DNA from: Bacillota bacterium
GTDB lineage: Bacteria > Bacillota > Bacilli > Paenibacillales > UBA4045
Assembly (NCBI GenBank): GCA_023441055.1
Contig: JAEZQY010000018.1
Coordinates: 8,164-72,163 of the forward strand
DNA length: 64,000 nt
Direction of reading: 5' to 3'
A model generated the notes under the pieces. That model made no database searches and was not told the origin of the DNA. It worked only from the letters and a program-made list of their open reading frames with translations. Positions 27-64,000 of this stretch are shown here, one piece after another. Numbering within the stretch: position 1 is the first letter of the stretch; every line of letters begins with the position of its first letter. The translations under genes were made by a program, and so were the position numbers.

Positions 27-470
27 TTGAAGATAAGATTAGGAACTAAGGATGACTGGGCGATTTTAGCGGATATATGGCTTAGGGTATCATTAAAGGC
101 GCACGATTTCGTAGATGCTTCATACTGGATGTCGAGGAGAGACGAACTGGAAGTGAAATATCTCCCTCTATCACAGACGTATGTATGTATAGATGATGAA
201 GAGATCATTGGTTTTATTTCAATGGTTGATGATTATTTGGCTGCTTTATTCATTGATGAAGCTTATCAAGGTAAAGGATATGGCGCTGCTCTGGTAGAGT
301 ACGTCAAGCGAAATAGAAGGTCTATTATGTTAAAGGTCTTTATGAATAATAAGTCGGCCTATCAATTTTACTTGAAGCAGGGATTTATTGTTGAACAGGA
401 GTTAGTCGATCAGGAGACGAATGAGGGCGAGTATGTGATGGTTTGGAACCGGATGGAGTGGATAAAATAA
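27..470 (+). CDS. GNAT family N-acetyltransferase
   Basis: 147-aa ORF. The acetyl-CoA binding motif region is 'FIDEAYQGKGYGAALVEYV', followed by 'AYQFYLKQGF', which is typical of the GNAT fold. The start is TTG. Confidence 0.85.
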   Translation: MKIRLGTKDDWAILADIWLRVSLKAHDFVDASYWMSRRDELEVKYLPLSQTYVCIDDEEIIGFISMVDDYLAALFIDEAYQGKGYGAALVEYVKRNRRSIMLKVFMNNKSAYQFYLKQGFIVEQELVDQETNEGEYVMVWNRMEWIK

Positions 471-8621: not shown

Positions 8622-8713
8622 TCGAGGGAAGATAACAAGGGCGGTAAGAGAAATGTGACGAATACTCGATATAAGAATATAGGTTCAAGTCATAAACACA
8701 ACGGTGATAACAG

Positions 8714-9436: not shown

Positions 9437-9447
9437 ATGCTCTGGCC

Positions 9448-9489
9448 CCCACATCCGCTGCTGATACAGCAGCGGATGTGGGTTTTTTT
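9448..9489 (+). terminator. rho-independent terminator
   Basis: A 16-bp perfect stem, 'cccacatccgctgctg'/'cagcagcggatgtggg', with a 3-nt loop followed by T7. Confidence 0.85.
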
Positions 9490-9490
9490 A

Positions 9491-9519
9491 TTGATTAAAG
9501 TAGTATATTGTTGGATAAT
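9491..9519 (+). promoter_or_regulatory. candidate sigmaA promoter of the 9587..15486 operon
   Basis: TTGATT (9491..9496), a 17-nt spacer and GATAAT (9514..9519), directly after the upstream terminator. Confidence 0.45.
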
Positions 9520-9586
9520 GTCAAATATGATAGATGGCATGATTGTGGAATACGACTAGCGCACGAGAAATGGGGTAAGGTGCGAT

Positions 9587-10781: not shown

Positions 10782-11819
10782 ATGAGTAGTGAAAATACTA
10801 CAGTCTCCACATTTTTGGAAAGTGTGAACAATCGTATAGTAAAGAAGAATGGAGCTCTCTACGAGAGCTGGCAAGTCTCGCTAGCAGGCAAGGTTGTTGA
10901 AATTCGGTATTGGAATGAGTTGGAGGTGTCATTCATAAAAGCATCTCTTCTGGGAAGAGGGCTTCCAAAGGAGAAGTATACCGTACCGGATACGGTGGTC
11001 TGGTGTTATACGGATGATGTTAACGTCTATATTCCTGATTTGCTGCGCAATCAGCCGCTGCCCGAGGGTGCATTAACCGATGTCTATCAGGGCAGGGATG
11101 CAACGGGCTGTATGAAGGTCACGAGAAGCATTGGGATGACAGGCGGCGACTTCGCGCGAAGGACGTATTATTTCTGCAGACATGCAGGCACTTCTTACGA
11201 TGACTTTATGCTGGGGCACCCGCTATTACAGTTTTTTTATTTCTGGACCGAGCAGGAGAACTTATTGCTTCTTCATTCTGCTGCAGTTGGGATTAACCAT
11301 AAAGGGGTGTTGATTAGCGCGCGTGGAGGTTCCGGAAAGTCGACATTGTCGGTAAGCTGCTTGCTTGAGGGGTTAGCGTTTGTAGGTGACGATTATATTC
11401 TGATGAGCGGAGCAGGAGAACGCCATGCACTCCCGCTATATACAATGGTTGGCTTAAATCAGGATATGATTCAGCTGTTAAAGCCGGATATGCCCGTTGT
11501 TAAGACGGAGGAGAAGCGAAATAACAAGCAGTTCTTTGATGCAACAGCCTATCCGTTTGAAGAACAGTTACCGATTAAAGCGATCCTATATCCCCAAGTT
11601 ACGGAGCAGAGTGAACCAACTATAACGCCGACAGACCGAGGTCCGGTATTAGTCAAATTGGTTCATTCCAGCGCGAGTCAAATTGGTGGACGGCGAGATA
11701 CGCAATTGGTGAAGAGAATGATGGATCGATTGAAGGATTTACCTGTTTATCAGTTTAATCTTAGTAAAGACCTTAAGAAAAATGTAAACGTACTAAAACA
11801 CTTCGTGGAGGGACTTTAA
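10782..11819 (+). CDS. HPr-kinase-related P-loop kinase
   Basis: 345 aa. 'HSAAVGINHKGVLISARGGSGKSTLSVSCLLEGLAFVGDDYILM' resembles the HprK/P C-terminal catalytic core (Walker A followed by 'gDD'). Confidence 0.7.
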   Translation: MSSENTTVSTFLESVNNRIVKKNGALYESWQVSLAGKVVEIRYWNELEVSFIKASLLGRGLPKEKYTVPDTVVWCYTDDVNVYIPDLLRNQPLPEGALTDVYQGRDATGCMKVTRSIGMTGGDFARRTYYFCRHAGTSYDDFMLGHPLLQFFYFWTEQENLLLLHSAAVGINHKGVLISARGGSGKSTLSVSCLLEGLAFVGDDYILMSGAGERHALPLYTMVGLNQDMIQLLKPDMPVVKTEEKRNNKQFFDATAYPFEEQLPIKAILYPQVTEQSEPTITPTDRGPVLVKLVHSSASQIGGRRDTQLVKRMMDRLKDLPVYQFNLSKDLKKNVNVLKHFVEGL

Positions 11820-11821
11820 GC

Positions 11822-12241
11822 ATGTATACATTAAACGAAGAAAAGATGTTCTATGATATTGCTGACGGACAAGCCATCGTTATTAATTTTGTTACAGGCA
11901 TGTATTACGGAACCAATGAGCTCGGATCGAAGGTGCTAGATGCGTTATTACAAGGAAAGGCGCCAGCGCACATTGTTGCGGCAATCAAGTGTAATGAAAA
12001 CTGTGTGGCGGACATTGATCAGCGTGTAGAGCAGTTTATTGCCGTTCTTACGTATAAGGAAATATTAATTCTCAATGATCAACCGTACAGCGAGGAAGGA
12101 CTGGACAATGTTGTCGTAGCTGATGGCGATTATAGCCTTGAGCTGAATGAGTTCGCGGAGGTTCAAGATCTTCTGCTGGCAGACCCGGTCCATGATGTGG
12201 AAGAAGCGGTCGGATGGCCTAAGCTCAAAGAAGAGGCTTGA
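11822..12241 (+). CDS. PqqD-family (RRE-like) peptide-binding protein with acidic C-terminal extension
   Basis: The first ~85 aa, 'FYDIADGQAIVINFVTGMYYGTNELGSKVLDALLQG', look like PqqD. The last ~50 aa are rich in D/E. The start lies 2 nt after the upstream stop. Confidence 0.65.
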   Translation: MYTLNEEKMFYDIADGQAIVINFVTGMYYGTNELGSKVLDALLQGKAPAHIVAAIKCNENCVADIDQRVEQFIAVLTYKEILILNDQPYSEEGLDNVVVADGDYSLELNEFAEVQDLLLADPVHDVEEAVGWPKLKEEA

Positions 12242-50404: not shown

Positions 50405-51144
50405 CTAAAACGCTGCAATAACGTATGCATTCTCCCAGGGAAATCGGTGATTAGACCGCTCGCGCCAGCTTGCAGGAGGGACTGCATGACATCCGGCTTG
50501 TTAACGGTGTAAGGGTACACCCGAATCCCTGCTTGTACCGCCTGACGAATCTCGTCTAGGCCGATCAATTGGTGATGGGGATGCAGGGAGAACAACCCAT
50601 CGCCGAATAATTTGGCAAATGCGATATGATCGACTACATCAGCTGTATAACCGACCCCAACGCGGATTTCAGGAATCAGCCTTTTCATCTTGGCCAGCTT
50701 CTTATGCTGGAAGGATGATAAGAATACCGATTCAACCCGATCCCACCGGACCAGCAAATCAACTAAGCGTTCTTCTAATTGCTCCGCCATGCCCTTTAAT
50801 TCGATATTAATGATCGTGCTGGCCGGCAGCTTGGCGAACACTTCCTCGAGTGAAGGCACCCGCTCACCCTCGAATCGTTCATGAAACCATAACCCCGCAT
50901 CGACCTGCTGGATTTCCTTCCATGTCAGATCGGTAATAACGCCCTTACCTGTCGTGGTTCGATCCAGCGTATCATCATGGAACACAATCAGCTCGCCATC
51001 CTTCGATAATACCGCATCTAATTCGATGGCATGAGCTCCTTGCTCGACAGCGAGCAAGAACGAAGCAATGGTATTCTCAGGGGCCTCTCCAGCAGCTCCC
51101 CGATGTCCAATAATCATTGGGTTTGGAAACTCTAGCATAGTCAT
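50401..51144 (-). CDS. glycerophosphodiester phosphodiesterase
   Basis: 'IIGHRGAAGEAPENT', 'IELDAVLSKDGELIVFHDDTLDRTT' and 'INIELK' are GDPD motifs. Start chosen at the ATG at 51144, behind AAGGAGAG. Confidence 0.9.
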   Translation of the reverse strand: MTMLEFPNPMIIGHRGAAGEAPENTIASFLLAVEQGAHAIELDAVLSKDGELIVFHDDTLDRTTTGKGVITDLTWKEIQQVDAGLWFHERFEGERVPSLEEVFAKLPASTIINIELKGMAEQLEERLVDLLVRWDRVESVFLSSFQHKKLAKMKRLIPEIRVGVGYTADVVDHIAFAKLFGDGLFSLHPHHQLIGLDEIRQAVQAGIRVYPYTVNKPDVMQSLLQAGASGLITDFPGRMHTLLQRFR

Positions 51145-51314
51145 CTTCTCTCCTTTACAACTGAATGTACAAGAGCGGACTTTTATCTCGCAATAATCTC
51201 TTATCATTTTTCCTGCGAATAAAGATAAGTGTCCACGATTAAAGATAAAGATTGAAATAATTTTGAACTCTTGCTATCGTTATGTTCACTTACTTCGAGA
51301 GAGTGGTGGACATA

Positions 51315-53576
51315 ATGAAGCGAAAACTGCGAACTTGGCGAATGGGGACGAGGAAGAAACTAGTAGTCATATGGCTGGGCGTCAGCATCATCATCATCTG
51401 TATCATGTTTCTGAGCTTGTATGGAATCGCGAGGAAGAGCGAGCAAGAGCGCACCGCATATCTCAACCAATTGGATCTGCTGTACTTACATAACCAGCTC
51501 GATGCCACTCTTAACTCCCTAAATATGGTAGCGGTCAACCTGTCCGCTAATGAGCGTCTGTCCAACACGATCCCGAATCAGGATGATCGGAATACAACAC
51601 TCGCACTGCAGCAAATTAGAGAAATTGTGCAGGCTTACAAGCATCACACACCGATTCCGTTCGATGTGACAATCATTAGTCGCGAGCGGCAGCTGGCGTT
51701 CACACAATCGGGGAAGCCGTTCTCCTACTTCAATGACATATTGAAGAGAGAGGTTCCAAGAGATGATCAGTTTCTGTTAACAAGCCCATCTCCTTATTCG
51801 GAACGTAATGAGCTGCTGCTGTTTCGTTCGTTGCCACTGGGTTCGTTCTACCTGGATGGTGTATTGGTGCTGCATATTGACCTGTCCGAAATTAAGCGAT
51901 TGATCGAAACTTGGAAGTATGCGCCTCAGCAATCCGTATGGCTGCTGGATCACAAGGGCCGAACGGTAATCGGAACGACGGACGAGTCGAAGGATCCGCT
52001 GCTGCAGCCGGGCTCGGTCTTATATCCATTCTGGAATGAGCCCGGCAACAAGGGCACGGTTCAGTTTCATGATAAGACATATCTGGTTAATTCCGTCCTA
52101 CTGCCTTCTAGTGGATATACGCTAGTCATTCTGAGTCCGATGAACGGATTTGAGGTGATCCTGAGTCCAATCTGGCTAAGTGCTGCTGCGGTAGCTTCGG
52201 GGGCAGCAGTGTTGTTAATCGTAATCGCCTACTTCTATGGGCGCGGGCTTCGCCGCCCGCTGGTCGAGCTGATTCGCAAGTATAGGCTTTCAGATTCCTC
52301 GCAGAGGGATGAGCACTTCATCCTCGACCGTTTTATCGCGCAATTGGTCGGTGATCACAACGAGCTGCAGAGCCAGCTGGATGGTTTTATTCCGGACTTA
52401 AAGCTGAGTACGTTCCAGCATTTACTGTGGGGGGAACTGCCAGAGGCTGAGCTCGTAGAGCGGGTAAAGCGATTGAAGCTTCCATTAACTGGGGATTTAT
52501 TCTATATTGGTGTCGTTACAATCGATGATTACATTCAGTTTCTTGAGCGCTTTCCTGTTAAGAATGAACAGGTGCTTATTCATCACAACTTGCGCAGAGT
52601 GGGGATGGATGTATTCGGAGAGATGGTCGATTGCATATCCTATACGCCAAGACACGGCTTGATCGTACTCATGATCGGTATGAACAGAACAATGGAAAAC
52701 CGCGACAAGGTCATGGCCGCGCTCGCTGATAAATACCGTGACAAGGTTCAGGAGCAATTCCCATTCACAGTCAGCATCGCGATTAGCCGGGGGCGCCCAG
52801 GCTATGCCAGCATGTCGACAAGCTACCAAGAAGCGTCATCCTTGCTCAACTATAAGGTGATTCTCGGCGATAACGTGACGGTGTCCGACCTCGATATCGG
52901 ATCAACGTTCAAGAAACCTACAAGAGAAATAAGCAGCAAGCAGAAGTTAATCGTTCGACTTGTCGTACAGGGTGATCTGGATGGCGCTGCGAGGGAATTG
53001 GACGAGCTCTGTATGGCGATCATGCAGCATTCGTATAAATCCGAATCCATGTTAGGCATTTTCTCTTACTTGCTAGGCGAACTGGAGTACCTATTGCATG
53101 AGATGGATGTCAACATTCACGACCTGTTCCCAGAGGACATCTACTCGACCCTCTACAACAAATCTACTTCCACAGGCGTGAAGGTTTGGCTATCGGAGTC
53201 CGTCTTCCCGACCATCAAGGCGAGTTTAGAGAATGACCTTGATTCCAAGCATAAGCATGTGGTGCATAAAGTGATGTATTATCTACACGACAATTACGAT
53301 ACGGATCTCACTTTACAGCATGTTGCTGATCAATTTGACTTGTCTACCTACCAGCTCAGTCGAATTTTTAAGGAGACAACGGACCAGACATTCAGCGACT
53401 ATCTGATCTCCTACCGGATGAAGAAGGCGATGGAGCTATTGGAGAGTACCGACACTTCAATTAAAGATATTGCTGACAAAATGCGCTATACGAATGTACA
53501 AAACTTCTCTCGAATCTTCAAACAAATAACCGGAGTTCCTCCAGGGGAGTACCGCAAGCAATCGCGTGAATCCTAA
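51315..53576 (+). CDS. membrane-anchored AraC-family one-component regulator (2 TM + extracytoplasmic sensor + AraC HTH)
   Basis: TM1 is 'LVVIWLGVSIIIICIMFLSLY' and TM2 is 'IWLSAAAVASGAAVLLIVIAYFY'. The C-terminal AraC HTH is 'LTLQHVADQFDLSTYQLSRIFKE...IKDIADKMRYTNVQNFSRIFKQITGVPPGEYR'. There is no receiver domain. Confidence 0.8.
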   Translation: MKRKLRTWRMGTRKKLVVIWLGVSIIIICIMFLSLYGIARKSEQERTAYLNQLDLLYLHNQLDATLNSLNMVAVNLSANERLSNTIPNQDDRNTTLALQQIREIVQAYKHHTPIPFDVTIISRERQLAFTQSGKPFSYFNDILKREVPRDDQFLLTSPSPYSERNELLLFRSLPLGSFYLDGVLVLHIDLSEIKRLIETWKYAPQQSVWLLDHKGRTVIGTTDESKDPLLQPGSVLYPFWNEPGNKGTVQFHDKTYLVNSVLLPSSGYTLVILSPMNGFEVILSPIWLSAAAVASGAAVLLIVIAYFYGRGLRRPLVELIRKYRLSDSSQRDEHFILDRFIAQLVGDHNELQSQLDGFIPDLKLSTFQHLLWGELPEAELVERVKRLKLPLTGDLFYIGVVTIDDYIQFLERFPVKNEQVLIHHNLRRVGMDVFGEMVDCISYTPRHGLIVLMIGMNRTMENRDKVMAALADKYRDKVQEQFPFTVSIAISRGRPGYASMSTSYQEASSLLNYKVILGDNVTVSDLDIGSTFKKPTREISSKQKLIVRLVVQGDLDGAARELDELCMAIMQHSYKSESMLGIFSYLLGELEYLLHEMDVNIHDLFPEDIYSTLYNKSTSTGVKVWLSESVFPTIKASLENDLDSKHKHVVHKVMYYLHDNYDTDLTLQHVADQFDLSTYQLSRIFKETTDQTFSDYLISYRMKKAMELLESTDTSIKDIADKMRYTNVQNFSRIFKQITGVPPGEYRKQSRES

Positions 53577-53775
53577 CATTCCGACTAGTGGGTTATCCTT
53601 TTTTGTACTCGGTTTATCTTTAACCGCATCCCTCGCAATAAGTGATTATTGTCATATAAGTGCATCCCGGGCTATCGTTTGGGGCGAGTCCTAAATATGA
53701 GTTGGAGGAGGGTAGTGACTAGCCCTGAATATCTTCTAGCCAATTGTCATTACATCACAGGGGGGTGCACGGTTT

Positions 53776-54663
53776 TTGTCATTGCGGAAACAGAAATGGA
53801 GAGAATCGCTTTACGCTTATGTGTTTTTACTTCCTTCCCTAATCCTGTTCGGCATATTTATTTTCTATCCGATGCTGCGCTCGATTTACTTTAGCTTGCA
53901 CTTGACGAATCCGCGCGGGAAAATCGCCATGTTTGTGGGGTTTGAGAATTTTGTGGATCTCTTCTCACAACCACAATTTTACGGCAGCTTGAAAGTCACC
54001 TTCTTATTCATGTTATTTACTGTACCGACATGTATTGCAATATCCGTTATTATGGCAGCGTTTTCAGGCGGCAAGCAGCGCGGTATGAAAGCCTTCCAGT
54101 GGATTTTTTCCCTGCCGGTTGTTGTATCGGTTGCAACAGGGTCCACTATCTGGCTGTTATTGTACCATCCGAGCATCGGCATGTTTAACTACTTTCTGAG
54201 CTTGCTTGGCTTTGATCCGGTGTTCTGGCTGTCGGATAAAGATTGGGCGTTGATTTCGGTCTCGCTCGTCACCATCTGGATGAATATCGGCTTCGCTTAT
54301 ATCGTCGTACTTGGTGGAATGAAGGGAATCAGTCATGACATCTATGAGAGTGCGATGATTGATGGTTCAGGACCGACTCACTCGTTCTTCCGCATTACAT
54401 TGCCTTTATTGTCGCCGACCTTCTTCTTCCTGACGATCGTCTCGATCATCGGTTCCTTCCAGGCATTCGGGCAAATCTATATTCTAACCCGGGGAGGACC
54501 TTCCCGTTCGACCGATGTAATCGTATTCGACATTTATCAGGAAGCGTTTATTAACTTCCAATTTGGCACCGCCAGTGCGAAGGCGCTCGTGTTGTTTGGG
54601 ATGATCTTGCTGCTGACAATCGTGCAATTTCGATTTGCAGAGAAGAAGGTGCATTATCAATGA
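53776..54663 (+). CDS. sugar/glycerophosphodiester-type ABC transporter permease
   Basis: Six TM segments. The EAA loop is 'ESAMIDGSGPTHSFFRITLPLLSP'. The start is TTG. Confidence 0.9.
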   Translation: MSLRKQKWRESLYAYVFLLPSLILFGIFIFYPMLRSIYFSLHLTNPRGKIAMFVGFENFVDLFSQPQFYGSLKVTFLFMLFTVPTCIAISVIMAAFSGGKQRGMKAFQWIFSLPVVVSVATGSTIWLLLYHPSIGMFNYFLSLLGFDPVFWLSDKDWALISVSLVTIWMNIGFAYIVVLGGMKGISHDIYESAMIDGSGPTHSFFRITLPLLSPTFFFLTIVSIIGSFQAFGQIYILTRGGPSRSTDVIVFDIYQEAFINFQFGTASAKALVLFGMILLLTIVQFRFAEKKVHYQ

Positions 54664-55481
54664 ATCGTTATCTCGTTCATTTCTTTCATTATTTGGCGCT
54701 CGTCATCATTTCGGTCATTATTTTGTATCCGCTTTACTTCGCGGTATCAACAGCGTTTATGACACCGAAGGAGCTGGCAAGCTATCCGACTCCACTATTT
54801 CCGAAGAGCTTGTATGTAGGCAACTTTGTGGACACGATCAAAGCAGTTCCCATCCTGCGCTACATTCTTAACTCATTCATTGTGGCGACGCTAATCATGA
54901 TTGGACAGTTAATCTTCTGTTCCATGGCAGCTTATGCTTTTGCAATTTTACGCTTTCCCGGCAAGGCCGCACTATTCTTATTGTTCCTGTCGACCATGAT
55001 GATCCCCTGGGAAGTGACGATCATTCCGAATTATCTGCTTATTCATTCATGGAATTGGATGGATTCTTACCTGGGATTAACAGTACCTTTTATGGCTAGC
55101 GCATTCGGGGTGTTCTTACTCCGACAGTCGTTCCTTCAACTGCCTACCGAGCTATTCGATGCGGTGAAGATTGATGGCTGCGGGATTGGTCAGACGTTCA
55201 TGAAGCTTGTACTTCCATTATCAAGGCCGATCCTGGCCACACTTGGCATCTACAGCTTCCTCAATGCATGGAATATGTATCTGTGGCCGTTACTCATCAC
55301 GAATACAAATACGATGAGAACCGTTCAAATCGGGATATCCATGCTGCAATGGGAGGAGAACCAATCATGGAACTTAGTCATGACTGGAGTTACGCTTGCT
55401 CTTATTCCTTCCATTCTTCTTCTAGTGTTCGGACTTAAACAATTAGTTGCTGGAATTACGGCAGGAGCATTAAAAGGATAA
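54660..55481 (+). CDS. carbohydrate ABC transporter permease
   Basis: The EAA loop is 'DAVKIDGCGIGQTFMKLVLPLSRP'. ATGA overlap with the upstream gene. Confidence 0.9.
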   Translation: MNRYLVHFFHYLALVIISVIILYPLYFAVSTAFMTPKELASYPTPLFPKSLYVGNFVDTIKAVPILRYILNSFIVATLIMIGQLIFCSMAAYAFAILRFPGKAALFLLFLSTMMIPWEVTIIPNYLLIHSWNWMDSYLGLTVPFMASAFGVFLLRQSFLQLPTELFDAVKIDGCGIGQTFMKLVLPLSRPILATLGIYSFLNAWNMYLWPLLITNTNTMRTVQIGISMLQWEENQSWNLVMTGVTLALIPSILLLVFGLKQLVAGITAGALKG

Positions 55482-55507
55482 CCACGAATATGAGAGGGGT
55501 TTATTAA

Positions 55508-56902
55508 ATGAATATAATATCCATTCGGAAAGTTGGCATTCTGTTCTTGGCTTTAGTTATGATTTTTACGGTAGCATGCAGCAACAACTCCGGCGGCAGC
55601 TCGAACTCGAATAAACCAGCTACCAACAGCGGCAGTCAATCGGGAGGTTCATCCGGGACTTCGAGTGAGCCGATTAAAGTGACATATTGGCACTATATGG
55701 GCGGTGGACTAGGTGAAGCTATCAATACACTAGTTGAAAACTTCAATGCTTCCCGCACAGATATTCAGGTCGAGGCGATCTACCAAGGCACCTATGATGA
55801 AGCGCTGAATAAGATGAAGGCGTCCATGGATTCGAAGTCGGGTCCGACTATTATGCAGGCTAATGACGGCGGTACGCGTTATATGGTTGATTCCGGGGCC
55901 ATTACGCCGATGCAGCACTTCATTGATGCGAACAACTTTGACCTAAGCCAATTCGAAGAGAATATACTCGCATACTACACATTGGACGAGCGGTTGAATT
56001 CGATGCCGTTTAACACCTCCAACCTCATCATGTACTACAACAAGGATATGTTCGCTAATGCGGGGCTTGATCCAGAGAATCCTCCGGTGACGTTCGATGA
56101 GATGAAGGAAGCAGGCCTAGCACTGACTAAGGATGGTGTGACCGGTATTTCATTCGCGATCGAGAGCTGGAACCTGGAGCAGCTTCTTGCTAATCAGGGA
56201 GCGGAGTTCGTTAATAATGGCAACGGGCGCGATGAACCGGCAACGGCGTCAGTCGTCAATAGTGAAGCAGCGATCCAGACGGTTACATGGTGGAAGGATC
56301 TGCTCGATTCGAAGGTCGCTATTAATCTGGGCCGTAAGGCAGATGATGCGAGAAAAGCATTCTCGGCAGAGCAAGTGGCCATCATCTTCTCCACAACCGC
56401 CTCGCTGCGTGCTCTTGTAACCAGCGCAGAAGGGAAATTCGAGGTAGGCACTGCATTCTTGCCGAAGCCGGATAATGCCAAGGATGGAGGAGTTGTGGTG
56501 GGCGGAGGCAGCTTGTACATTCTGAACAATCGTCCGGAAGCCGAACAGAATGCTGCATTCGAATTTATCAAGTTTGTTCTGTCACCTGAACAGCAGGCGA
56601 TTTGGCATGTGAATACGGGCTACTTCCCAGTTACCAAATCCGCATATGACCAGCCTCTAGTTAAGGAAAATATGGAGAATTACCCGCAATTCAAGACAGC
56701 CGTCGATCAGCTGCATGCGACTACATTGAACCGAGCGACCCAAGGAGCTGTGATTGGTGTGTTCCCAGAAGCGCGACAACTGACAGAAATCGCTCTTGAA
56801 GATGCGCTCAGTGGCACTAAGCCAATAAAGGATGCATTGGATCAAGCCGCCAAAGAGATCACCGCAAAAATCGAAGTCTACAATAAAACGGTGCAAAAAT
56901 AA
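55508..56902 (+). CDS. ABC transporter substrate-binding lipoprotein (UgpB-like)
   Basis: The lipobox is 'FTVACSNNSGG', followed by an S/G-rich linker and an SBP_bac_1/8-like body. Confidence 0.9.
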   Translation: MNIISIRKVGILFLALVMIFTVACSNNSGGSSNSNKPATNSGSQSGGSSGTSSEPIKVTYWHYMGGGLGEAINTLVENFNASRTDIQVEAIYQGTYDEALNKMKASMDSKSGPTIMQANDGGTRYMVDSGAITPMQHFIDANNFDLSQFEENILAYYTLDERLNSMPFNTSNLIMYYNKDMFANAGLDPENPPVTFDEMKEAGLALTKDGVTGISFAIESWNLEQLLANQGAEFVNNGNGRDEPATASVVNSEAAIQTVTWWKDLLDSKVAINLGRKADDARKAFSAEQVAIIFSTTASLRALVTSAEGKFEVGTAFLPKPDNAKDGGVVVGGGSLYILNNRPEAEQNAAFEFIKFVLSPEQQAIWHVNTGYFPVTKSAYDQPLVKENMENYPQFKTAVDQLHATTLNRATQGAVIGVFPEARQLTEIALEDALSGTKPIKDALDQAAKEITAKIEVYNKTVQK

Positions 56903-56911
56903 CGAGGCGAC

Positions 56912-57736
56912 ATGAAATTAACATTCTTGGGAAGCGGAGCGGCAGAGGGAATTCCCTCTCCGTTCTGCAATTGTCGCACATGCGATTATGCTAGAGCGGC
57001 CAAGGGACGCAATGTGCGGAGGAGACAGGCCGTCCTGATCAATGATGATCTGATGATTGACTTCGGTCCCGACATCTATATATCCTTAGAGCAGACTGGG
57101 TTGTCTATGATTCCTGTACAATACTTGCTGGTGACTCATAGTCACTCTGATCACTTCTATGCCGGGAATTTAGATTTCCGTCCGCAGGCGTTCCGACGAT
57201 CTACAACACTCCCTGCGCTTAAGCTAATTGGCGGGCCCTCTGTTCAGACCTTGTGGACCATGCATACATCAGGGGATGGAGAGAAGCAAGACATAGTCAG
57301 ACACCCCATTCTGCCAGGAGACCGGCTAAGTCTATCTCCTTATGAGATTCAAGCAATTCAAGCGAGGCATCTTCTGGACATTGGCGATGCGATGAACTAT
57401 ATAATCGAGGATGGCGCTCACAGATTGCTGTATGCGACCGACACCGGGCTGTATGATGAATCATCATGGCAGCATATAGAGAGAGAACGGATGGACATGG
57501 TCGTCATGGAGATGACGTACGGGCTGCAGGCTGGAAGCGAGATTCATCTTGGGATCGGAGAATATATGGAGATGAGACGAAGATTAACCGAGCTTGGTTG
57601 TATCGATGACACTACGCTATGTATCGCTGCACATTTCTCGCATCAAGATACACCGCCTCATGATGAGCTGGAGCAGCAGCTTCTCGAGCACAACATCATA
57701 GCGGCCTATGATGGACTCATTGTGGAAATCGGTTAA
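56912..57736 (+). CDS. MBL-fold metallo-hydrolase (PhnP/PqqB-like phosphodiesterase candidate)
   Basis: The N-terminus is 'FLGSGAAEGIPSPFCNCRTCDYA' (Cys-rich PhnP/PqqB-type motif), and 'THSHSDHF' is the beta-lactamase-fold metal motif. Confidence 0.75.
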   Translation: MKLTFLGSGAAEGIPSPFCNCRTCDYARAAKGRNVRRRQAVLINDDLMIDFGPDIYISLEQTGLSMIPVQYLLVTHSHSDHFYAGNLDFRPQAFRRSTTLPALKLIGGPSVQTLWTMHTSGDGEKQDIVRHPILPGDRLSLSPYEIQAIQARHLLDIGDAMNYIIEDGAHRLLYATDTGLYDESSWQHIERERMDMVVMEMTYGLQAGSEIHLGIGEYMEMRRRLTELGCIDDTTLCIAAHFSHQDTPPHDELEQQLLEHNIIAAYDGLIVEIG

Positions 57737-57739
57737 GCG

Positions 57740-58954
57740 ATGGGAGAAACCTTGCAAGGCGTGAAGAGTGGATCGATTAAGCAAGTCAAGCTGCTTGCCG
57801 TCGTAACGGCAATATGTCTGATGGGCGATTCGATGTTATATATTGCGCTCCCGATATTCTGGGAAGAGGTAGGATTGACCTCCTTATGGGAGGTCGGCCT
57901 ACTTCTGTCGATTAATCGCTTGGTGAGACTGCCCTTAAGTCCGATTGTAGGCTGGTTATATGCGAGGATGAATATCCGTCTAGGACTTCTACTCTCCATT
58001 ACGTTCGCGACGATCTCGACACTATCCTACGGCTTACTTACCGGATTCGCGTGGTGGATCGCCATGCGTTGTCTATGGGGCGTCGCATGGACCTTCCTGC
58101 GCATCGGCGCTTATCTAGCGATCCTGGATTTGTCGGACGACTCGAATCGCGGGAATTATTATGGCACCTATACGGGAATTTATCGATTAGGCAGCTTGTT
58201 CGGTGTGCTCGTCGGTGGAATATTAGCTGACATCTTCGGCTTGCGGCCTGTTGCGATCGTTCTAGGTCTGCTGACGTTCATCTCGGTGCCGATCGTCATG
58301 CTTAACACACCCAAGACCGCTAGGGTGAAGCAGTCCTCCGTAGCAGAGAAGACCAATGTTCGATCAATTCTTGCCTTCGTGCAGGAGAAGCGGGACCTTC
58401 TGTACTTGATTGTTACCGGACTGCTCATCACCATGATCTGTGAAGGCATATTCACTTCTACGCTAAGCCTGCTGATCGAGACGAGTTATTCACCGCTAGT
58501 CTTGTTCGGGGTAACGATCGGTGCATCCAGCGCGGCAGGCTTCCTGCAAGCGATGCGATGGGGGTGGGGGCCGTGGCTCTCTCCTTGGCTCGGCCGTAAA
58601 TTTGATATCTCTACGAATCGGACACGCGTGCTGTGGATTACGTTGATCGTCGTAGCTTTACTATTCATCCTGGTCCCGCTGTCCTTGCCATTGTTGGCCT
58701 GGATCCTCATCATCATCGGGATTATGCTGCTGGCTACCCTGCTGGCGACCCTAATGGACACCTTAGTCACAGCGCAAGCGTCAGCAACGAACAAAGTGCT
58801 GGTCATTACGATGTATACCCTTGCACTGGATATTGGTGCAGCCATCGGCCCGATCGTCGGATTCTCACTTCGTGTCGACATCGTCTATTGGCTATGCGCA
58901 GTCTTGCTAGGCGTCAGTGCGATGTTCTGGTTGAAGCGATCATCCGTGGGATGA
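57740..58954 (+). CDS. MFS transporter (12 TM)
   Basis: 404 aa and hydrophobic throughout. It lies 3 nt downstream of the MBL gene. Confidence 0.85.
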   Translation: MGETLQGVKSGSIKQVKLLAVVTAICLMGDSMLYIALPIFWEEVGLTSLWEVGLLLSINRLVRLPLSPIVGWLYARMNIRLGLLLSITFATISTLSYGLLTGFAWWIAMRCLWGVAWTFLRIGAYLAILDLSDDSNRGNYYGTYTGIYRLGSLFGVLVGGILADIFGLRPVAIVLGLLTFISVPIVMLNTPKTARVKQSSVAEKTNVRSILAFVQEKRDLLYLIVTGLLITMICEGIFTSTLSLLIETSYSPLVLFGVTIGASSAAGFLQAMRWGWGPWLSPWLGRKFDISTNRTRVLWITLIVVALLFILVPLSLPLLAWILIIIGIMLLATLLATLMDTLVTAQASATNKVLVITMYTLALDIGAAIGPIVGFSLRVDIVYWLCAVLLGVSAMFWLKRSSVG

Positions 58955-58980
58955 ATGTCTATTCCAGCAATTCGAATCAA

Positions 58981-59178
58981 TTATCGGATTCGGAACTGGC
59001 AGGTGGATTTCAGGTACTTATCACCATTTTCTAAAGTAACGGACTCTTCTGATTGTGACGCGATCACACCCGAGTATTCTAGCATGATACCTCGTTGAAT
59101 AATCATAACTGGTTTCTTGTTATGAATAACTGCTTGGAATTGTTCGAGAGTATTCAAGGGGAATCCTGATTTAAACAT
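58981..59178 (-). CDS. hypothetical small protein
   Basis: 65-aa ORF convergent with the MFS gene. No recognisable motif. Confidence 0.35.
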   Translation of the reverse strand: MFKSGFPLNTLEQFQAVIHNKKPVMIIQRGIMLEYSGVIASQSEESVTLENGDKYLKSTCQFRIR

Positions 59179-59352
59179 ATTGACACCTCTGATTATCTGT
59201 TATAAGCATTTCACTGGAGTCATATGTGCCATTTTTGAAAGTTGGTAAGGGGAAGTTTCACTGCAGCATTATTGATAAGTATATCGCTATACTTCATGAA
59301 TACAAGTATTTGGTTCGCGCCTGACTATTCAACAGTATGTAGCATGTTCTTT

Positions 59353-59396
59353 AATCTCCACCTAGTGTTTTCGACACTAGGTGGAGATTTTCCTCT
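59353..59396 (+). terminator. strong stem-loop at the left edge of the AT-rich island
   Basis: A 16-bp perfect stem, 'aatctccacctagtgt'/'acactaggtggagatt', with a 5-nt loop, followed by 'ttcctctt'. Confidence 0.55.
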
Positions 59397-59668
59397 TAGC
59401 TCCATTTTACCGTCAATAAATCGACTTATCACTATTTAATCCACAACTCTAATTCTTTAATTTAAGTAAGTTTATGCTTATATAAGCATGATGACTTGAC
59501 TGATCTTCAGAGCATTTTTTATGACGCTATGCTGATAGCAGCGGCTAACATTCGATAACACAAGCAAATCGATATATCAATCCAACAAAAAATAACAAAG
59601 ATCATATAGTGAATAGAATATATGATATAATGTGAGACATGTTGAGTATTGTGAGGTGTGTGTGTCAA

Positions 59669-59858
59669 ATGGCGATTAAAAGTGCACTGTCAACATTATC
59701 GGACGAGAAACGCTACTTGATAAAGGATGTTCATGAGAAGCTATGATTAGCTCGTAATAATGTATCGAATCTATATAATGAAGGGCCACAGGGATAGACC
59801 TGAGACTATCGACAAATTGTGCGATTTATTCAATTGTGATGTCAACGATATTTTATAG
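59669..59858 (+). pseudogene. decayed small XRE/Cro-type HTH regulator (controller-like)
   Basis: It reads 'MAIKSALSTLSDEKRYLIKDVHEKL', then TGA, then 'LARNNVSNLYNEGPQG'. After a +1 shift it continues 'DRPETIDKLCDLFNCDVNDIL*'. That is a ~63-aa HTH protein with one in-frame stop and one frameshift. Confidence 0.6.
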
Positions 59859-59943
59859 AGAGATTAATTTAGTTAACTTTGTACTATTAACTAGGGAATT
59901 TTCTTAGATACGACTATATTTAATACGAAAGAGGTAGACAATA

Positions 59944-61056
59944 TTGAATCGCGAAATCCACAAAGATAATACTATTCCTAAAATCGTTTCTACATTTTCA
60001 GGTTGTGGTGGACTAGATCTAGGTTTTCATTTGGAAGGTTACGAGACAGTATGGGCAAACGATTTTTCTGAGTGGGCGGTGAAATCATTTCAAGAAAACT
60101 TAGGAAATGTTATTGTATACGAGGATATTACCAAAATTGATCCATATAATAATAAAAGCATTCCAGATTGTGATTTGGTCCTAGGGGGATTTCCATGTCA
60201 AGACTTTTCGGTGATATGGAAACAACCTGGTTTGAATGGAAAAAGAGGTGGTCTTTATCGGAATTTCCTTGAATTTGTGGATGCAAAAAAACCAAAGGCT
60301 TTTGTGGCGGAAAATGTTAAGGGACTTTTGACTGCTAATAAGAGAAAAGCAATCGAAACAATGATTAAAGATTTCGAAAGCATTTCACCGGGATATGTAG
60401 TAAAAGTACATTTATATAATTTTGCGGAATATGGCGTTCCTCAATTTAGAGAAAGAGTACTTATCGTTGGGGTTCGAGTAGATACTGGCTTTAATTTCAT
60501 ACATCCTAAACCTACTCATGGTCCCAATTCTAATAAATCATATGTTACTGCAGGAGAGGCACTGATAGGTGTTGAGGATGTTGAGCATAACAATGAGCAA
60601 ATAAATAGTGCAGAGAAGACACGGAAGATGCTAGAGTTGATACCAGAAGGTGGTAACTTTACAGATATCCCGAAAGACCACCCTTTATATGTTAAAGGTA
60701 TGATTAGTCATGTTTACAGAAGGATTAAGCGTGATGAGCCTGCAAAAACCATTATTGCTGCTGGAGGCGGAGGTACATGGGGATATCACTATCCAGAGCC
60801 ACGTTCACTAACCAATAGAGAACGGGCCCGACTGCAATCATTCCCTGATGATTTTAGATTTATTGGAAGTGTTGCTGAGGTCCGGAGGCAAATCGGCAAT
60901 GCAGTGCCTCCTGAAGGAGTCCGGGCACTGGCAAGGAGATTAAAACCGCTCTTTACTGGAGACTACGAGAAGGTTGATCTTTACGAATTACATCGAAACT
61001 TGTCGAAATTGACTGTTAAAGAAAGACTTGAACTTGCTACGAGCGAAATGATATAA
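59944..61056 (+). CDS. DNA (cytosine-5)-methyltransferase
   Basis: Motif I is 'FSGCGGLDLG', IV is 'GGFPCQDFS', VI is 'ENVKGL', VIII is 'QFRERVLIVG', IX is 'RERARLQSFPDDF' and X is 'GNAVPP'. The start is TTG. Confidence 0.95.
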   Translation: MNREIHKDNTIPKIVSTFSGCGGLDLGFHLEGYETVWANDFSEWAVKSFQENLGNVIVYEDITKIDPYNNKSIPDCDLVLGGFPCQDFSVIWKQPGLNGKRGGLYRNFLEFVDAKKPKAFVAENVKGLLTANKRKAIETMIKDFESISPGYVVKVHLYNFAEYGVPQFRERVLIVGVRVDTGFNFIHPKPTHGPNSNKSYVTAGEALIGVEDVEHNNEQINSAEKTRKMLELIPEGGNFTDIPKDHPLYVKGMISHVYRRIKRDEPAKTIIAAGGGGTWGYHYPEPRSLTNRERARLQSFPDDFRFIGSVAEVRRQIGNAVPPEGVRALARRLKPLFTGDYEKVDLYELHRNLSKLTVKERLELATSEMI

Positions 61057-61067
61057 GGAGCTGAACT

Positions 61068-62126
61068 ATGGAGTATTTGTATTCCAATCTGCCGCCACTT
61101 CGAACAAGGGCAAACACGTTTACTGATGCATTTTATTCTTTGCTTCCTAGAACTAAGAGTCTGGATATAGCAGTAGGATATGTCACAGCCGATTCATTAG
61201 TTGAACTAAAAAAGACAATCGAACTAAATAATGTTGAACACATGAATTTAACAATAGGGATGCACTACTTTGAGAAGTTTACAGAAGTAGAGTACAGATC
61301 TGCAATGGATTTAAATAATTTTCTTACCTCAAATAATATTGGCAGTGTTAGATTAGTTACTCCCTTCAAATTTCACGGCAAGCTTTATTCGTATCAAGAC
61401 AATGAGGGGCCGTTTGCGGGTATAATTGGATCAAATAATTTAAGCAGTATTATTGAAAGTAATAGAAGAGTTTATGAAGCTTCATTCTTGGTTGATGATC
61501 GACTTTATGCGACCCAAATGTATGATTTTATTCAAGAATTGAACCAATCGTCTACTGATATTATTGACAATCTAAGTATTAGCGATTTTAAAGAGCAAAA
61601 TCCATTGCTTGAGAATCATGAGCACGTTGAAAAGGTTGGACCTCATGAACTTATCCAACTGCAATCCGGTCTAACGGATATTTCGTTTCATATCCCTATT
61701 AAAGGAGCTGAGATCTCGCCACAAAGTAATTTGAATGTTTTTTTTGGGAAGGGGCGAGAAGGGAAAAATGGTCTTGTAAAGCCACGTCATTGGTATGAAG
61801 CGGAACTCATAGTTCCCAAAATAGTTACAGAACAACCTTTTTATCCTCAAAGTAAAACAGACGAAGCGGTTTTTGGTGTAGTAACTGATGACGGGTGGAA
61901 GTTTAAATGTAAAGTTAGCGGAGACTATAGTAAGAATTTTCGATCGGAAAATGATCTTAAAATTCTTGGGAAGTGGTTAAAGGGCCGTCTTGAAAATAAA
62001 GGTGTATTGCGAGTGGGTGAGCCTGTAACAGAGGATACATTAAGGATGTATGGAAGAGATACATTTACCTTAACTAAAACCAACTATCCTAATTTGTGGT
62101 ATCTTGACTTTGGGGTGAATTCATGA
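61068..62126 (+). CDS. PLD-family restriction nuclease with B3-like DNA-binding C-domain (NgoFVII / R.CglI / R.NgoAVII-like R-protein)
   Basis: There is a single HKD-type motif, 'FHGKLYSY....GIIGSNNLS', in the N-terminal half. The C-terminal half, 'HWYEAELIVP...DDGWKFKCKVSG', is consistent with a B3/EcoRII-N-like fold. Its position between the M and Z1 genes also fits. Confidence 0.75.
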   Translation: MEYLYSNLPPLRTRANTFTDAFYSLLPRTKSLDIAVGYVTADSLVELKKTIELNNVEHMNLTIGMHYFEKFTEVEYRSAMDLNNFLTSNNIGSVRLVTPFKFHGKLYSYQDNEGPFAGIIGSNNLSSIIESNRRVYEASFLVDDRLYATQMYDFIQELNQSSTDIIDNLSISDFKEQNPLLENHEHVEKVGPHELIQLQSGLTDISFHIPIKGAEISPQSNLNVFFGKGREGKNGLVKPRHWYEAELIVPKIVTEQPFYPQSKTDEAVFGVVTDDGWKFKCKVSGDYSKNFRSENDLKILGKWLKGRLENKGVLRVGEPVTEDTLRMYGRDTFTLTKTNYPNLWYLDFGVNS

Positions 62127-64000
62127 GTTATTTAGATAATTACTTTAATATAATCTCTTCAAGGGGAAATTCCGGGTTAGCAGAAGCGATCAAAAAAACA
62201 ACGGATGATATTGTACCTCAATACATAAGAAACTTCTCATTTAAGGATCATGTTGTCAGTTTATTAATGGGCAATGTGCAAAGTGGGAAGACAAGTCATA
62301 TATTTGGAGTGATTTCGGCGGCATCAGATGAGGGTTTTGGTATTTTTGTATTGCTAACTACTGATAACATCTTATTGCAACAGCAAACTATTCATCGTGC
62401 AAAGCAAGATCTTACAACCTTTTGCGTATGCGATGAAAATGATTATCTGAATTTTGTTAGCAATGCGATGCGTAAACCTGTATTGATTATTTTAAAAAAG
62501 AACAGCAGAGTACTCAACCAGTGGAAAAATAATTTTAGCTCAACCAATTTTTGCGCGGGTAACCCTCTCTTTATTATTGATGACGAAGCTGATGCCGCTA
62601 GCTTAAATACGATGATAAATAAAAACAAAAGGAGCACCATAAATAGAATTTTAGAAGAGATTAAAAACACTTCGTCTAGCAGTATTTATGTTCAAGTTAC
62701 TGGAACCCCTCAATCAATATTTCTTCAGACTTTGCAGAGTAATTGGAAACCATATTTTATTTATTACTTCGATCCAGGGAAAGGATATTTAGGTGGTGAC
62801 TTCTTTTTTGGTGATGAAGAGTCGCCATATATACTTTTTACGGATAATGATGAAGCCCAAGAAATCTTAGTTGATGATGAATTCCCTGAGAATGGATTGA
62901 AATTGGCTTTGATTACACATCTTATAACGTCAGCCCACATATTTATCAATGGTGGTAAAGTTAGTAACTTCTTGATTCATCCAAGTGTAAAGACAGATGA
63001 TCATGAAAAGTTTGCCGAGAAGATTGGAGAGTACTTGAATCAAATTAGTAGCTCGATGGATGAAGAGGATGTAATTGAAGCATTTCGGACAGCGTATAAT
63101 AATGTGAAATTTACAAAAAGCGAGATACATCCATTTGGAGACATCATTTCTTTTATAAAAGAATTATTGGAAAATGACAATGTCAATCTATTGGTTATAA
63201 ACTCAAACTCGTCTTATGAAGATAATGTAAAGTATGAATCTGGTGTTAATGTTATTATTGGAGGTAATAGCCTAGGGCGAGGAGTTACCTTTCCTAAATT
63301 ACAGACAATCTATTATTGTCGTGTTTCAAAAACCCCTCAAGCTGATACAATGTGGCAACATTCAAGAATGTTTGGTTATGACAGAGACCCGGAGTTGGTT
63401 CGGGTATTTATGCCACCAATGTTGTATAAGCTTTTTTACGATATTAACACAACGAATAATTCCTTGATAGATCAAATAAAAAAATTTGGCGGTCATAACG
63501 ATATTAAGATTCGTTATCCAAAGGGATTAAATCCGACCAGAAAAAATGTATTAGATAAGAAGGCAATTAACATACTAAGCGGTGGAGTAAATTACTTCCC
63601 CTTTTCCCCAGTAAATATTGAATACGAATCATTGGATGATATGCTGTCTGTGTTTAGGGATGAAAATTATCTTGTCAGTCTCAATGTGTTTGTGAAAATT
63701 TTGAACCTGATTGGTTCTGAATTAACTGATTGGAATAGAAATAACTTTATCGAGATTATTAATTCCTATATCGCAGAAAACCCATTGACACAAGGTAGAT
63801 TAATTGTTCGGAGAGATAGAGATATCACAAAAGGTACCGGAACACTCCTATCACCGAACGATAGGAGATTGGGAATGTCTTTTAGCGATGAAATTGTACT
63901 GACTATGTATAGAGTAACTGGAACGAAAGGATGGGGCGGGAATAGGATCTGGATACCTAATATTAAACTTCCTGACGGTATTATGTACTTTAACGTAAAT
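62123..64000 (+). CDS. DEAD-Z1 helicase-like ATPase (N/H-subunit of CglI/NgoAVII-type systems), 3' end outside window
   Basis: This ORF is not in the supplied track because it has no stop inside the window. The ATG at 62123 overlaps the upstream stop (ATGA). Walker A is 'GNVQSGKTS', the DEAD box is 'IIDDEADAAS', then 'VQVTGTP', and the Z1 signature is 'IIGGNSLGRGVTF'. Confidence 0.8.
   Translation, partial: MSYLDNYFNIISSRGNSGLAEAIKKTTDDIVPQYIRNFSFKDHVVSLLMGNVQSGKTSHIFGVISAASDEGFGIFVLLTTDNILLQQQTIHRAKQDLTTFCVCDENDYLNFVSNAMRKPVLIILKKNSRVLNQWKNNFSSTNFCAGNPLFIIDDEADAASLNTMINKNKRSTINRILEEIKNTSSSSIYVQVTGTPQSIFLQTLQSNWKPYFIYYFDPGKGYLGGDFFFGDEESPYILFTDNDEAQEILVDDEFPENGLKLALITHLITSAHIFINGGKVSNFLIHPSVKTDDHEKFAEKIGEYLNQISSSMDEEDVIEAFRTAYNNVKFTKSEIHPFGDIISFIKELLENDNVNLLVINSNSSYEDNVKYESGVNVIIGGNSLGRGVTFPKLQTIYYCRVSKTPQADTMWQHSRMFGYDRDPELVRVFMPPMLYKLFYDINTTNNSLIDQIKKFGGHNDIKIRYPKGLNPTRKNVLDKKAINILSGGVNYFPFSPVNIEYESLDDMLSVFRDENYLVSLNVFVKILNLIGSELTDWNRNNFIEIINSYIAENPLTQGRLIVRRDRDITKGTGTLLSPNDRRLGMSFSDEIVLTMYRVTGTKGWGGNRIWIPNIKLPDGIMYFNVN

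Follow-up and report, generated by a model that had tools for sequence, protein, structure and literature searches.

In one mechanistically unusual class of R-M systems, a DEAD-Z1 translocase drives a Type IIS-like PLD/B3 nuclease; to our knowledge, biochemical work on this class is limited to CglI, NgoAVII and BceSIV. CglI, from Corynebacterium glutamicum, lies in the CGP3 prophage (PMC4267653), has R and H proteins of 358 and 632 aa, and provides the definitions of the DEAD-Z1 motifs (PMC5861437). NgoAVII, from Neisseria gonorrhoeae, is represented by PDB entries 4RCT, 4RD5 and 4RDM, and for its R protein the roles of the residues of the nuclease active site, of the clamp and of the reading of the central C:G pair have been described (PMC4267654). 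M.CglI and M.NgoAVII were reported to recognise GCSGC and the corresponding R proteins GCCGC (PMC4267653, PMC4267654). BceSIV and Bce14579I of Bacillus cereus, which recognise GCWGC, are counted in this family by PMC4267653: they combine a PLD nuclease and an ATPase, cleave in an NTP-dependent manner and come from a Firmicute host; the class is thus not as little studied in Firmicutes as the initial annotation held. BfiI, a Type IIS enzyme, shares the PLD plus B3-like architecture of R and builds a single PLD active site from a dimer, but it is ATP-independent and acts alone (PMC4267654).

Here we analyse a locus at the end of a 64,000-nucleotide stretch of DNA (the window) that encodes the same three genes as NgoAVII, in the same order and on one strand (Table 1). 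From the protein sequences, we consider it very likely that this cassette is an intact ATP-dependent R-M system of the CglI/NgoAVII type, placed on an acquired island and having the mechanism and specificity predicted below.

Table 1. Features of the island and its left edge, in window positions unless stated otherwise.
Feature	Position	Strand	Remarks
65-aa ORF	58981..59178	-	left edge of AT-rich island; possibly not a real gene
Terminator-like hairpin (candidate), perfect 16-bp inverted repeat, 5-nt loop	59353..59389	+	non-coding left part of island
Decayed HTH_26 (Cro/C1-type) regulator gene	59669..59861	+	one in-frame TGA and one frameshift (three-frame translation)
M, stand-alone C5-cytosine DNA methyltransferase, 370 aa, TTG start	59944..61056	+	PF00145
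R, PLD + B3 nuclease, 352 aa	61068..62126	+	PF09565 + PF20731
H (= N), DEAD-Z1-C helicase-like ATPase/translocase subunit, complete, 626 aa	62123..64000	+	PF10593 Z1
Vsr mismatch endonuclease	L002 13066-13509 (identical contig), outside window	+	downstream of H
Orphan OmpR-type response regulator	outside window, after Vsr	-	island gene

The three proteins and their family

The identity of M as a C5 methyltransferase, as read from its sequence, is certain. It matches PF00145 at 6e-75 over profile positions 2-323 of 324, TIGR00675 (dcm) with 223 bits (cut-off 100.65) and the PADLOC model MTase_II at 3e-117, and the motifs that we checked are all present (FSGCGG 18-23, PCQ 84-86, ENV 123-125, QFRER 167-171, RERARLQ 292-298, GNAV 318-321), in agreement with the intact set reported initially. 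R is the 352-aa protein in which a PLD/HKD nuclease and a B3-like half had been recognised, and both parts were recovered: PF09565 at 1.7e-34 and PF20731 at 1.4e-43, PADLOC REase_II at 6.7e-104 over 1-348, R.NgoAVII (4RCT) at an E value of 3e-81 over residues 4-348, and the B3 domain structures 4RD5/4RDM at 3e-53. Among the residues named in the text of PMC4267654, we compared four of the active site, two clamp lysines and three readers of the central base pair, and all are the same as in NgoAVII. H103, K105, N124 and E137 align with active-site positions 104, 106, 124 and 137 (GSNN at 121-124), K212 and K282 with the clamp lysines K212 and K275, and E244, E246 and R292 with the central C:G readers 241, 243 and R285. 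The C-arm is nearly identical (WKFKCKVSGDYSKNFRSENDL here, WQFQCKTSGDYSKNFRSENDL in NgoAVII), whereas at the tip of the N-arm three charged residues of NgoAVII are replaced (R228 by E, D229 by G and R231 by N), and a 3-residue insertion precedes the tip.

H was thought to be cut by the window edge at 626 aa or more. The length of 626 aa holds, but the gene is complete: its 626 codons contain no stop, and only the TAA falls outside, at the window equivalent of 64001-64003 on identical contigs. The protein matches Z1 (PF10593) at 9e-31 and the PADLOC model Helicase_II ('Type II helicase domain protein') at 2.7e-237, with 787 bits over profile positions 1-619 of 621. Residues 471-621 align with residues 2-164 of the H.CglI C-domain (6F1S) at an E value of 3e-20, a comparison with CglI that covers this domain. 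The diagnostic DEAD-Z1 features are all present. The N-core carries the unusual Q-for-G Walker A variant GNVQSGKT (QSGKT 53-57) and DDEAD (153-157), both identical in N.NgoAVII, and TGTP at 193-196. The H/H motif (H286/H294, eight apart, as H282/H290 in CglI), R386 in GRGVTF (motif V) and QHSR at 412-415 (QxxR motif VI) all align with N.NgoAVII. The Walker A, the DEAD box, the Z1 signature GGNSLGRGVTF (ending at 390) and the ATGA overlap of the H start with the R stop (62123-62126) are thus found where they had been reported.

Every catalytic and family-specific motif that we checked in M, R and H is intact, and these three genes and Vsr are full-length open frames. Global identity to the proteins encoded in the N. 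gonorrhoeae chromosome is 69.6% for M, 44.7% for R and 43.1% for H, and the sizes of R and H are close to those of their CglI counterparts, with the same architecture. Profile, structure-database and pairwise comparisons agree with the initial assignment to the CglI/NgoAVII type, since similarity was found both to the NgoFVII/R.CglI family and to Z1-domain proteins. The genes are tightly packed, with 11 bp between M and R and an overlap of 4 bp between R and H. This M-R-H order, which is also that of the NgoAVII locus, is very stable: among the best 80 of 118 loci (one per species), M adjoins R in 79/79 assessable cases and H adjoins R in 78/78. A scan with a two-peptide pattern found the cassette in at least 118 of 185,579 species genomes, which bears out the view that the class is rare, and the family comprises 1390 clusters at 90% identity among 5.8 billion. 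The close relatives (60-75% identity) are mostly from Clostridia and Bacillota. A classical Type I R-M system was considered and rejected: HsdS, the separate specificity subunit, and HsdM are absent, the methylase is of the C5 rather than the N6-adenine type, and the nuclease is a PLD-type protein on a separate subunit rather than the PD-(D/E)xK nuclease of HsdR.

An AT-rich island and its accessory genes

GC content drops from 0.53 (58500-58999) to 0.36 (59000-59499) and remains between 0.33 and 0.44 up to the window end. The AT-rich character had been noted before, with a start at about 59.4 kb; the GC profile places the onset at ~58.95-59.0 kb, about 400 bp earlier, right behind an MFS gene. 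Two contigs that are 100% identical to window positions 51068-64000 were used for extension past 64000, and they confirm that more island genes lie there. The island totals ~6.9 kb at about 35% GC, ends ~1.85 kb past the window, and is flanked on both sides by DNA with a GC content of about 0.50. It contains, in order, the decayed HTH_26 gene, M, R, H and Vsr, all on the plus strand, and the response-regulator gene on the minus strand. Its right-hand junction was set from composition only, and the left one also from comparison with relatives. The two nearest relatives, whose MFS proteins are 80% and 71% identical, keep synteny as far as the MFS gene; synteny and nucleotide similarity then stop at 58938-58947, and AhpC or IS21 stands in place of the island. 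Related cassettes are found next to recombinases, a relaxase, toxin-antitoxin genes and further defence genes, and some are on plasmids. Because of the low GC, of the loss of synteny and of these mobile settings, we conclude that the island was acquired horizontally by a Paenibacillaceae (Paenibacillus-like) chromosome of about 50% GC. We found no tRNA gene in the window, no direct repeats flanking the island beyond short chance-level pairs, and no Rfam family within the island at E <= 0.1. Unlike the CglI locus, the small island has no phage genes, and host phylum and genomic setting both differ from those of NgoAVII.

The left part of the island is gene-poor, as initially stated, but this part extends over 765 bp (59179-59943) rather than about 500 bp and includes the HTH_26 pseudogene. 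At its edge, the 65-aa ORF lies just beyond the point where the relatives' similarity ends, and the gene calls of the two identical contigs include it. Pfam, NCBIfam and PADLOC gave no family for it, and tblastn found no match either at the syntenic positions of the two nearest relatives or in three cassettes related to this one. The candidate hairpin occupies L002 8286-8322 on the identical contig. Terminator-like sites in the region are as frequent as in shuffles (4 found, 4.2 expected), and promoter-like sites are likewise at the shuffled level (25 found, 28.1 expected). The HTH_26 remnant was recognised by comparison with an intact 67-aa protein whose gene (L004 6625-6828) lies before M in a related cassette. 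tblastn aligns it in two segments, 58% and 52% identical, that are not in the same frame (joint E value 3e-14), the stop falling at the Gly of 'TGLSRN', and its hand-repaired translation matches PF13443 at 1.3e-09. An intact homologue lies 5' of M in 12 of the 73 assessable loci (among the best 80 of 118) and is missing from the other 61, which suggests that the gene is dispensable. Its product might act as an R-M controller (C) protein, a putative role for a gene that is a pseudogene here, and since it is intact in some relatives, regulation may differ between cassettes. No common palindrome or operator, such as the C-box that goes with controller proteins, was seen in the upstream DNA of the 12 relatives with an intact gene, and the palindrome ATGCTTATATAAGCAT of the window (59474-59489) has no counterpart upstream of HTH_26 in relatives.

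Vsr is well supported by TIGR00632 (135.5 bits, cut-off 97.85), PF03852 (4.4e-25) and PADLOC Vsr (6.7e-22). Among the best 80 of 118 loci, it is 3' of H in 37 of 66 assessable cases and 5' of M in six, so that M-R-H-Vsr is a common form of the module in the Clostridia/Bacillota clade, and a small HTH_26 gene sometimes stands in front. The NgoAVII locus differs in having neither Vsr after the motor gene, where hemE is found, nor an HTH gene before M. A related island in Paenibacillus crassostreae has lost Vsr and has IS21 debris beside it; there the response-regulator gene adjoins M-R-H in a split and inverted form. One could imagine that the response regulator puts restriction under environmental two-component control, in place of the decayed HTH_26 protein, but we regard this as very improbable. 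If true, it would explain in molecular terms the 'stress-sensitive restriction' after which, as a phenotype, CglI was originally named.

Target site, mechanism and competing readings

The target sequence had been considered unreadable from the sequence, which is too pessimistic: the core of the target-recognition domain (TRD) of M (aa 226-286) shares 55 of 61 positions (90%) with its counterpart in M.NgoAVII. Together with the conserved central C:G readers of R, this leads us to predict, tentatively, methylation of GCSGC by M and cleavage at GCCGC by R. This assignment is the least certain step of our explanation. The host part of the window has about one GCSGC site per 460 bp, and no avoidance of GCSGC or GCWGC was found in these 58.95 kb (observed/expected 1.05 and 0.99 against a Markov expectation), which speaks neither for nor against it.

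The mechanism is assumed from CglI (PMC5737866, PMC5861437). On the host chromosome, M would methylate GCSGC sites at a cytosine, while R and an H dimer would form an R2H2 complex. Once this complex is bound to a site, its DEAD-Z1 motor would hydrolyse ATP rapidly and translocate on double-stranded DNA, preferentially downstream. Where the moving complex meets one bound to a site, cleavage would follow at a constant distance of ~6-7 nt downstream of the site, and phage or plasmid DNA entering the cell would be destroyed in this way. Vsr would nick T:G mismatches resulting from deamination of 5-methylcytosine, thereby limiting the mutational cost of the methylase. The R2H2 assembly, the NTP-dependent cleavage and the cut at a fixed distance 3' of GCCGC are inferred by analogy with the biochemistry of CglI and NgoAVII.

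Within the same family and mechanism, R could have another specificity, because GCWGC enzymes, BceSIV among them, belong to the family: the target might be GCWGC, or R might recognise GCSGC in a relaxed manner instead of GCCGC in a strand-specific one. Members with GCWGC or GCAGC targets exist, according to PMC4267653 and to the REBASE list quoted in PMC10734518. The altered charges at the N-arm tip would fit such a change, and the authors of the NgoAVII structure state that it is difficult to tell from sequence which bases a B3 domain will contact (PMC4267654). Yet the methylase resembles the GCSGC enzyme M.NgoAVII, in the TRD core and overall. The central C:G readers, which one would expect to be altered in an enzyme for GCWGC, are kept here in a C-arm that is almost that of NgoAVII. 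We thus find a different target unlikely. The cassette could also be a silent or decaying relic on an eroding island, its methylase perhaps active and its restriction unexpressed or non-functional. The HTH_26 pseudogene, the damaged P. crassostreae island and the promoter-like sites, which do not exceed shuffles, could be read in this way. But the HTH_26 gene is missing from most assessable relatives, hence dispensable, M, R, H and Vsr have kept their frames and motifs, and the translational coupling of R and H through ATGA is preserved, all of which makes decay quite improbable.

A last alternative would take H out of the system, either as the Z1 protein of another defence system (e.g., MzaC) or as an unrelated helicase beside a stand-alone, BfiI-like Type IIS nuclease. 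The structural relation of R to BfiI, which needs no ATPase (PMC4267654), makes the second version conceivable, and H does match MzaC of the MZA system in NCBIfam (62 bits) and PADLOC (8e-15). Both matches are restricted to the Z1 core, however, and the former spans ~135 residues and is far under the cut-off of 1500 bits, whereas the CglI-type helicase model is matched end to end and the C-terminal domain aligns with that of H.CglI. Moreover, H is surrounded by M, R and Vsr and not by other Mza genes, which are absent, and R, unlike BfiI, has a DEAD-Z1 motor gene translationally coupled to its own, directly 3' of it in every relative assessed. This reading is effectively refuted.

An intact CglI/NgoAVII-type system thus remains our preferred explanation. 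The cassette would be one more apparently intact representative, in Bacillota, of the PLD/B3 and DEAD-Z1 class, and nothing in it challenges the current understanding of these systems. For the host, the system would bar phage or plasmid DNA carrying unmethylated GCCGC, which matters to anyone transforming the organism.

Constituents of the M-R-H cassette

The cassette encodes a C5 methyltransferase (M), a nuclease with NgoFVII PLD and B3-like domains (R), and a DEAD-Z1 motor (H, also called N). Its initial annotation as a system of the CglI (Corynebacterium glutamicum) and NgoAVII (Neisseria gonorrhoeae) type is supported by profile searches, which recover both the similarity of R to the NgoFVII family and that of H to Z1 proteins. 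M is a full-length enzyme (PF00145, 6e-75; dcm TIGR00675, 223 bits; PADLOC MTase_II, 3e-117), with the recognisable C5 methyltransferase motifs all in position. Residues 4-348 of R align with the sequence of the R.NgoAVII crystal structure (E 3e-81). H matches Pfam Z1, spans profile positions 1-619 of 621 in the PADLOC model of the CglI-type helicase (787 bits), and resembles in residues 471-621 the C-terminal H.CglI domain of known structure (6F1S, E 3e-20). All the DEAD-Z1 motor features defined by Toliusis et al. (PMC5861437) were found in H. In NgoAVII numbering, R keeps 1) the active-site positions H104/K106, 124, and E137; 2) the clamp-phosphate lysines K212/K275; and 3) the readers of the central C:G pair, i.e., positions 241, 243, and R285, the roles of these residues in R.NgoAVII being described in PMC4267654. 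The text of that paper gives D124, D241, and D243; the deposited 4RCT chain and the gonococcal gene (5001-6038 of L090, the N. gonorrhoeae record with the NgoAVII locus) have N124, E241, and E243. The other six R.NgoAVII residues named there agree exactly with the numbering, and positions 124, 241, and 243 are conserved in R whichever residue naming holds.

The ORF listing misses H because, as first noted, its frame runs without a stop to the last base of the window. The gene was also taken to be cut by the window edge, and this was not borne out. On L001 and L002, two public contigs that reproduce all 12,933 bases of window 51068-64000 with 100% identity (locus position + 51067 = window position), H has 626 aa and is followed by a TAA stop at L002 12934-12936 (window-equivalent 64001-64003). 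Extension past 64000 thus recovered the full gene: the window holds all 626 codons of H and lacks just the stop. It also brought to light the further island genes that had been anticipated there, encoding a Vsr mismatch endonuclease (TIGR00632, 135.5 bits for a cut-off of 97.85; PF03852, 4.4e-25) and an OmpR-family response regulator.

Features of the cassette and its island (window coordinates unless stated; positions in H are residues)
Feature	Position	Strand	Details
65-aa ORF	58981-59178	-	very edge of island
Hairpin	59353-59389		perfect 16-bp stem (AATCTCCACCTAGTGT/ACACTAGGTGGAGATT); non-coding left part of island
Palindrome	59474-59489		perfect, 16 bp (ATGCTTATATAAGCAT); non-coding left part of island
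Decayed HTH_26 (Cro/C1-type) regulator gene	59669-59861		upstream of M; in-frame TGA and frameshift
M	59944-61056	+	370 aa; TTG start, AGAGGT before start
R	61068-62126	+	352 aa; stop overlaps start of H (ATGA)
H	62123-64000	+	626 codons, open to last window base
H Walker A	53-57		QSGKT, Q-for-G variant
H DEAD	154-157		
H motif III			TGTP
H H/H pair	H286, H294		8 residues apart
H motif V arginine	R386		
H motif VI	412-415		short QxxR
Vsr endonuclease	L002 13066/13108-13509		downstream of H, outside window
OmpR-family response regulator	L002 13511-14218 (window-equivalent 64578-65285)	-	receiver and Trans_reg_C domains

Proposed mechanism and target specificity

As judged from its sequence, the cassette has every feature that the family mechanism requires. 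By analogy with the characterised systems (PMC4267653, PMC5737866, PMC5861437), an R2H2 complex would bind GCCGC via its B3 domains, and site binding would set off the hydrolysis of ~170 ATP/s by the DEAD-Z1 motor. The complex would then translocate on double-stranded DNA, preferably downstream, until collision with a site-bound complex would switch on the single PLD active site and lead to a cut 6-7 nt downstream of the site. M would shield the host DNA by methylating it, and Vsr would mend deamination damage at the M-methylated cytosines.

The NgoAVII locus used for comparison was taken from a N. gonorrhoeae chromosome mis-filed in a plasmid collection; this record, NZ_CP119142.1 (L090), and NZ_CP119140.1 are 2.17 Mb "plasmid" records, evidently whole chromosomes. 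Global identity with NgoAVII is 69.6% for M, 44.7% for R, and 43.1% for H. Within the variable target-recognition region of M, the core (aa 226-286) is identical to that of M.NgoAVII at 55 of its 61 positions, and the C-arm of R is almost identical to that of R.NgoAVII, whereas the tip of the N-arm differs at three charged positions. The target reported for M.CglI and M.NgoAVII is GCSGC (S, C or G), and that of the R proteins is GCCGC (PMC4267653, PMC4267654, PMC10734518). From these near-identities and the reported targets, we predict that M methylates GCSGC and that R restricts GCCGC, with the caveat that the family, according to PMC4267653, also contains GCWGC enzymes (W, A or T). The host part of the window shows no avoidance of GCSGC (127 sites counted).

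Extent and gene content of the island

The cassette lies, as initially described, in an AT-rich island, with a GC content of 0.33-0.44 from 59000-59499 to the window end. Its onset is not at about 59.4 kb as first placed: the drop in GC starts at ~58955, with values of 0.53 for 58500-58999 and 0.36 for 59000-59499. Beyond the window, the Vsr and response-regulator genes have a GC of 0.29-0.37, and values return to ~0.51 near L002 14800, just ahead of a HI0933-like flavoprotein gene. The island is therefore about 6.9 kb long, from ~58955 to ~1.85 kb past the window end, the right edge being placed by GC content. We picked the two nearest relatives by their versions of the MFS transporter that flanks the island (80% and 71% identical). 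In both, the gene order AraC-ABC transporter-MBL hydrolase-MFS is that of the window, and the DNA aligns at 72-76% nucleotide identity until the MFS gene ends at 58938-58947; past this point they hold unrelated DNA (an AhpC gene or IS21). The cassette thus occupies a variable spot and is missing from the nearest relatives. The conserved sugar-transporter operon on the island's left side includes the MBL-fold hydrolase (56912-57736), which matches PF23023 (Anti-Pycsar Apyc1-like) and Lactamase_B_2; this hydrolase is kept in relatives without the island and is therefore a host gene outside the restriction-modification system. We found no tRNA gene in the window, no direct repeats flanking the island, and no Rfam element within it. 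After these two relatives, the MFS protein has its best named matches in Paenibacillus species, at 51-54%, which points to a sparsely sampled lineage of the Paenibacillaceae as the host. The R protein occurs with identical sequence on five public contigs, L001 and L002 among them, and the exact proteins of the cassette are already present in public assemblies; no R protein more than 73% identical was found in any species-representative genome in our pattern scan of 185,579 genomes.

The stretch upstream of M is coding-poor, as first seen, with no intact ORF of note at 59179-59943, and it contains the decayed HTH_26 gene, which had been overlooked. An intact 67-aa HTH_26 protein, which precedes M in the related locus L004, matches this region in two frames (58% and 52% identity; joint E 3e-14), and the hand-repaired translation matches PF13443 (1.3e-09). 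Intact homologues precede M in 12 of the 73 assessable relatives, which makes this gene an optional accessory; no shared operator was found upstream of it in these 12. The hairpin and the palindrome have no counterparts in related cassettes. For the 65-aa ORF, searches of Pfam, NCBIfam, and PADLOC gave no family, and the compared loci contain no homologue of it; it may be a false call or a genuine small gene of the island. The response-regulator gene (36% GC) is part of the island and neighbours the cassette; its product reaches none of the NCBIfam equivalog cut-offs, and no kinase gene adjoins it. In Paenibacillus crassostreae (L003), a 57%-identical homologue is found directly behind the species' own M-R-H cassette (11349-12053), in opposite orientation, split in two ORFs, and with IS21 IstB fragments behind it. 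Both islands may have come from one low-GC, Paenibacillus-like donor. A regulatory link of the orphan regulator to the cassette is possible, if unsupported. This regulator and the HTH_26 relic are the sole slightly unexpected points of the island.

Distribution of related cassettes

Homologues of R form 1390 clusters at 90% identity (E <= 1e-5), more than 120 of them at 63% identity or above, and named members include P. crassostreae, Clostridium formicaceticum, and [Clostridium] innocuum. The pattern scan confirmed at least 118 loci in the 185,579 species genomes. The system is thus rare, as had been proposed, but its description as little studied in Firmicutes leaves out of account the Bacillus cereus members, which were characterised in 2012 (PMC4267653). 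The best 80 of the 118 loci are mostly from Clostridia and other Bacillota and also include Saccharibacteria, Bacteroidota, Planctomycetota, and one archaeal bin. Among these 80, M is directly ahead of R (79/79 assessable) and H directly after it (78/78), and Vsr follows H in 37, precedes M in 6, and is absent in 23 of the 66 assessable loci. GmrSD/DUF262-type (Type IV restriction-like) genes often lie behind related cassettes, and a HEPN gene does so once (L004 11457-13265; L003 13663-14889; L091, another related locus, 8694-10535), which suggests that M-R-H modules cluster in defence islands; neither type is present in the studied island. The M-R-H system is found in a small fraction of genomes, yet is not unusual for Firmicutes. 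The neighbours of related cassettes include recombinase, relaxase, toxin-antitoxin, GmrSD, and HEPN genes, and some cassettes are plasmid-borne. These genomic settings fit a mobile defence module.
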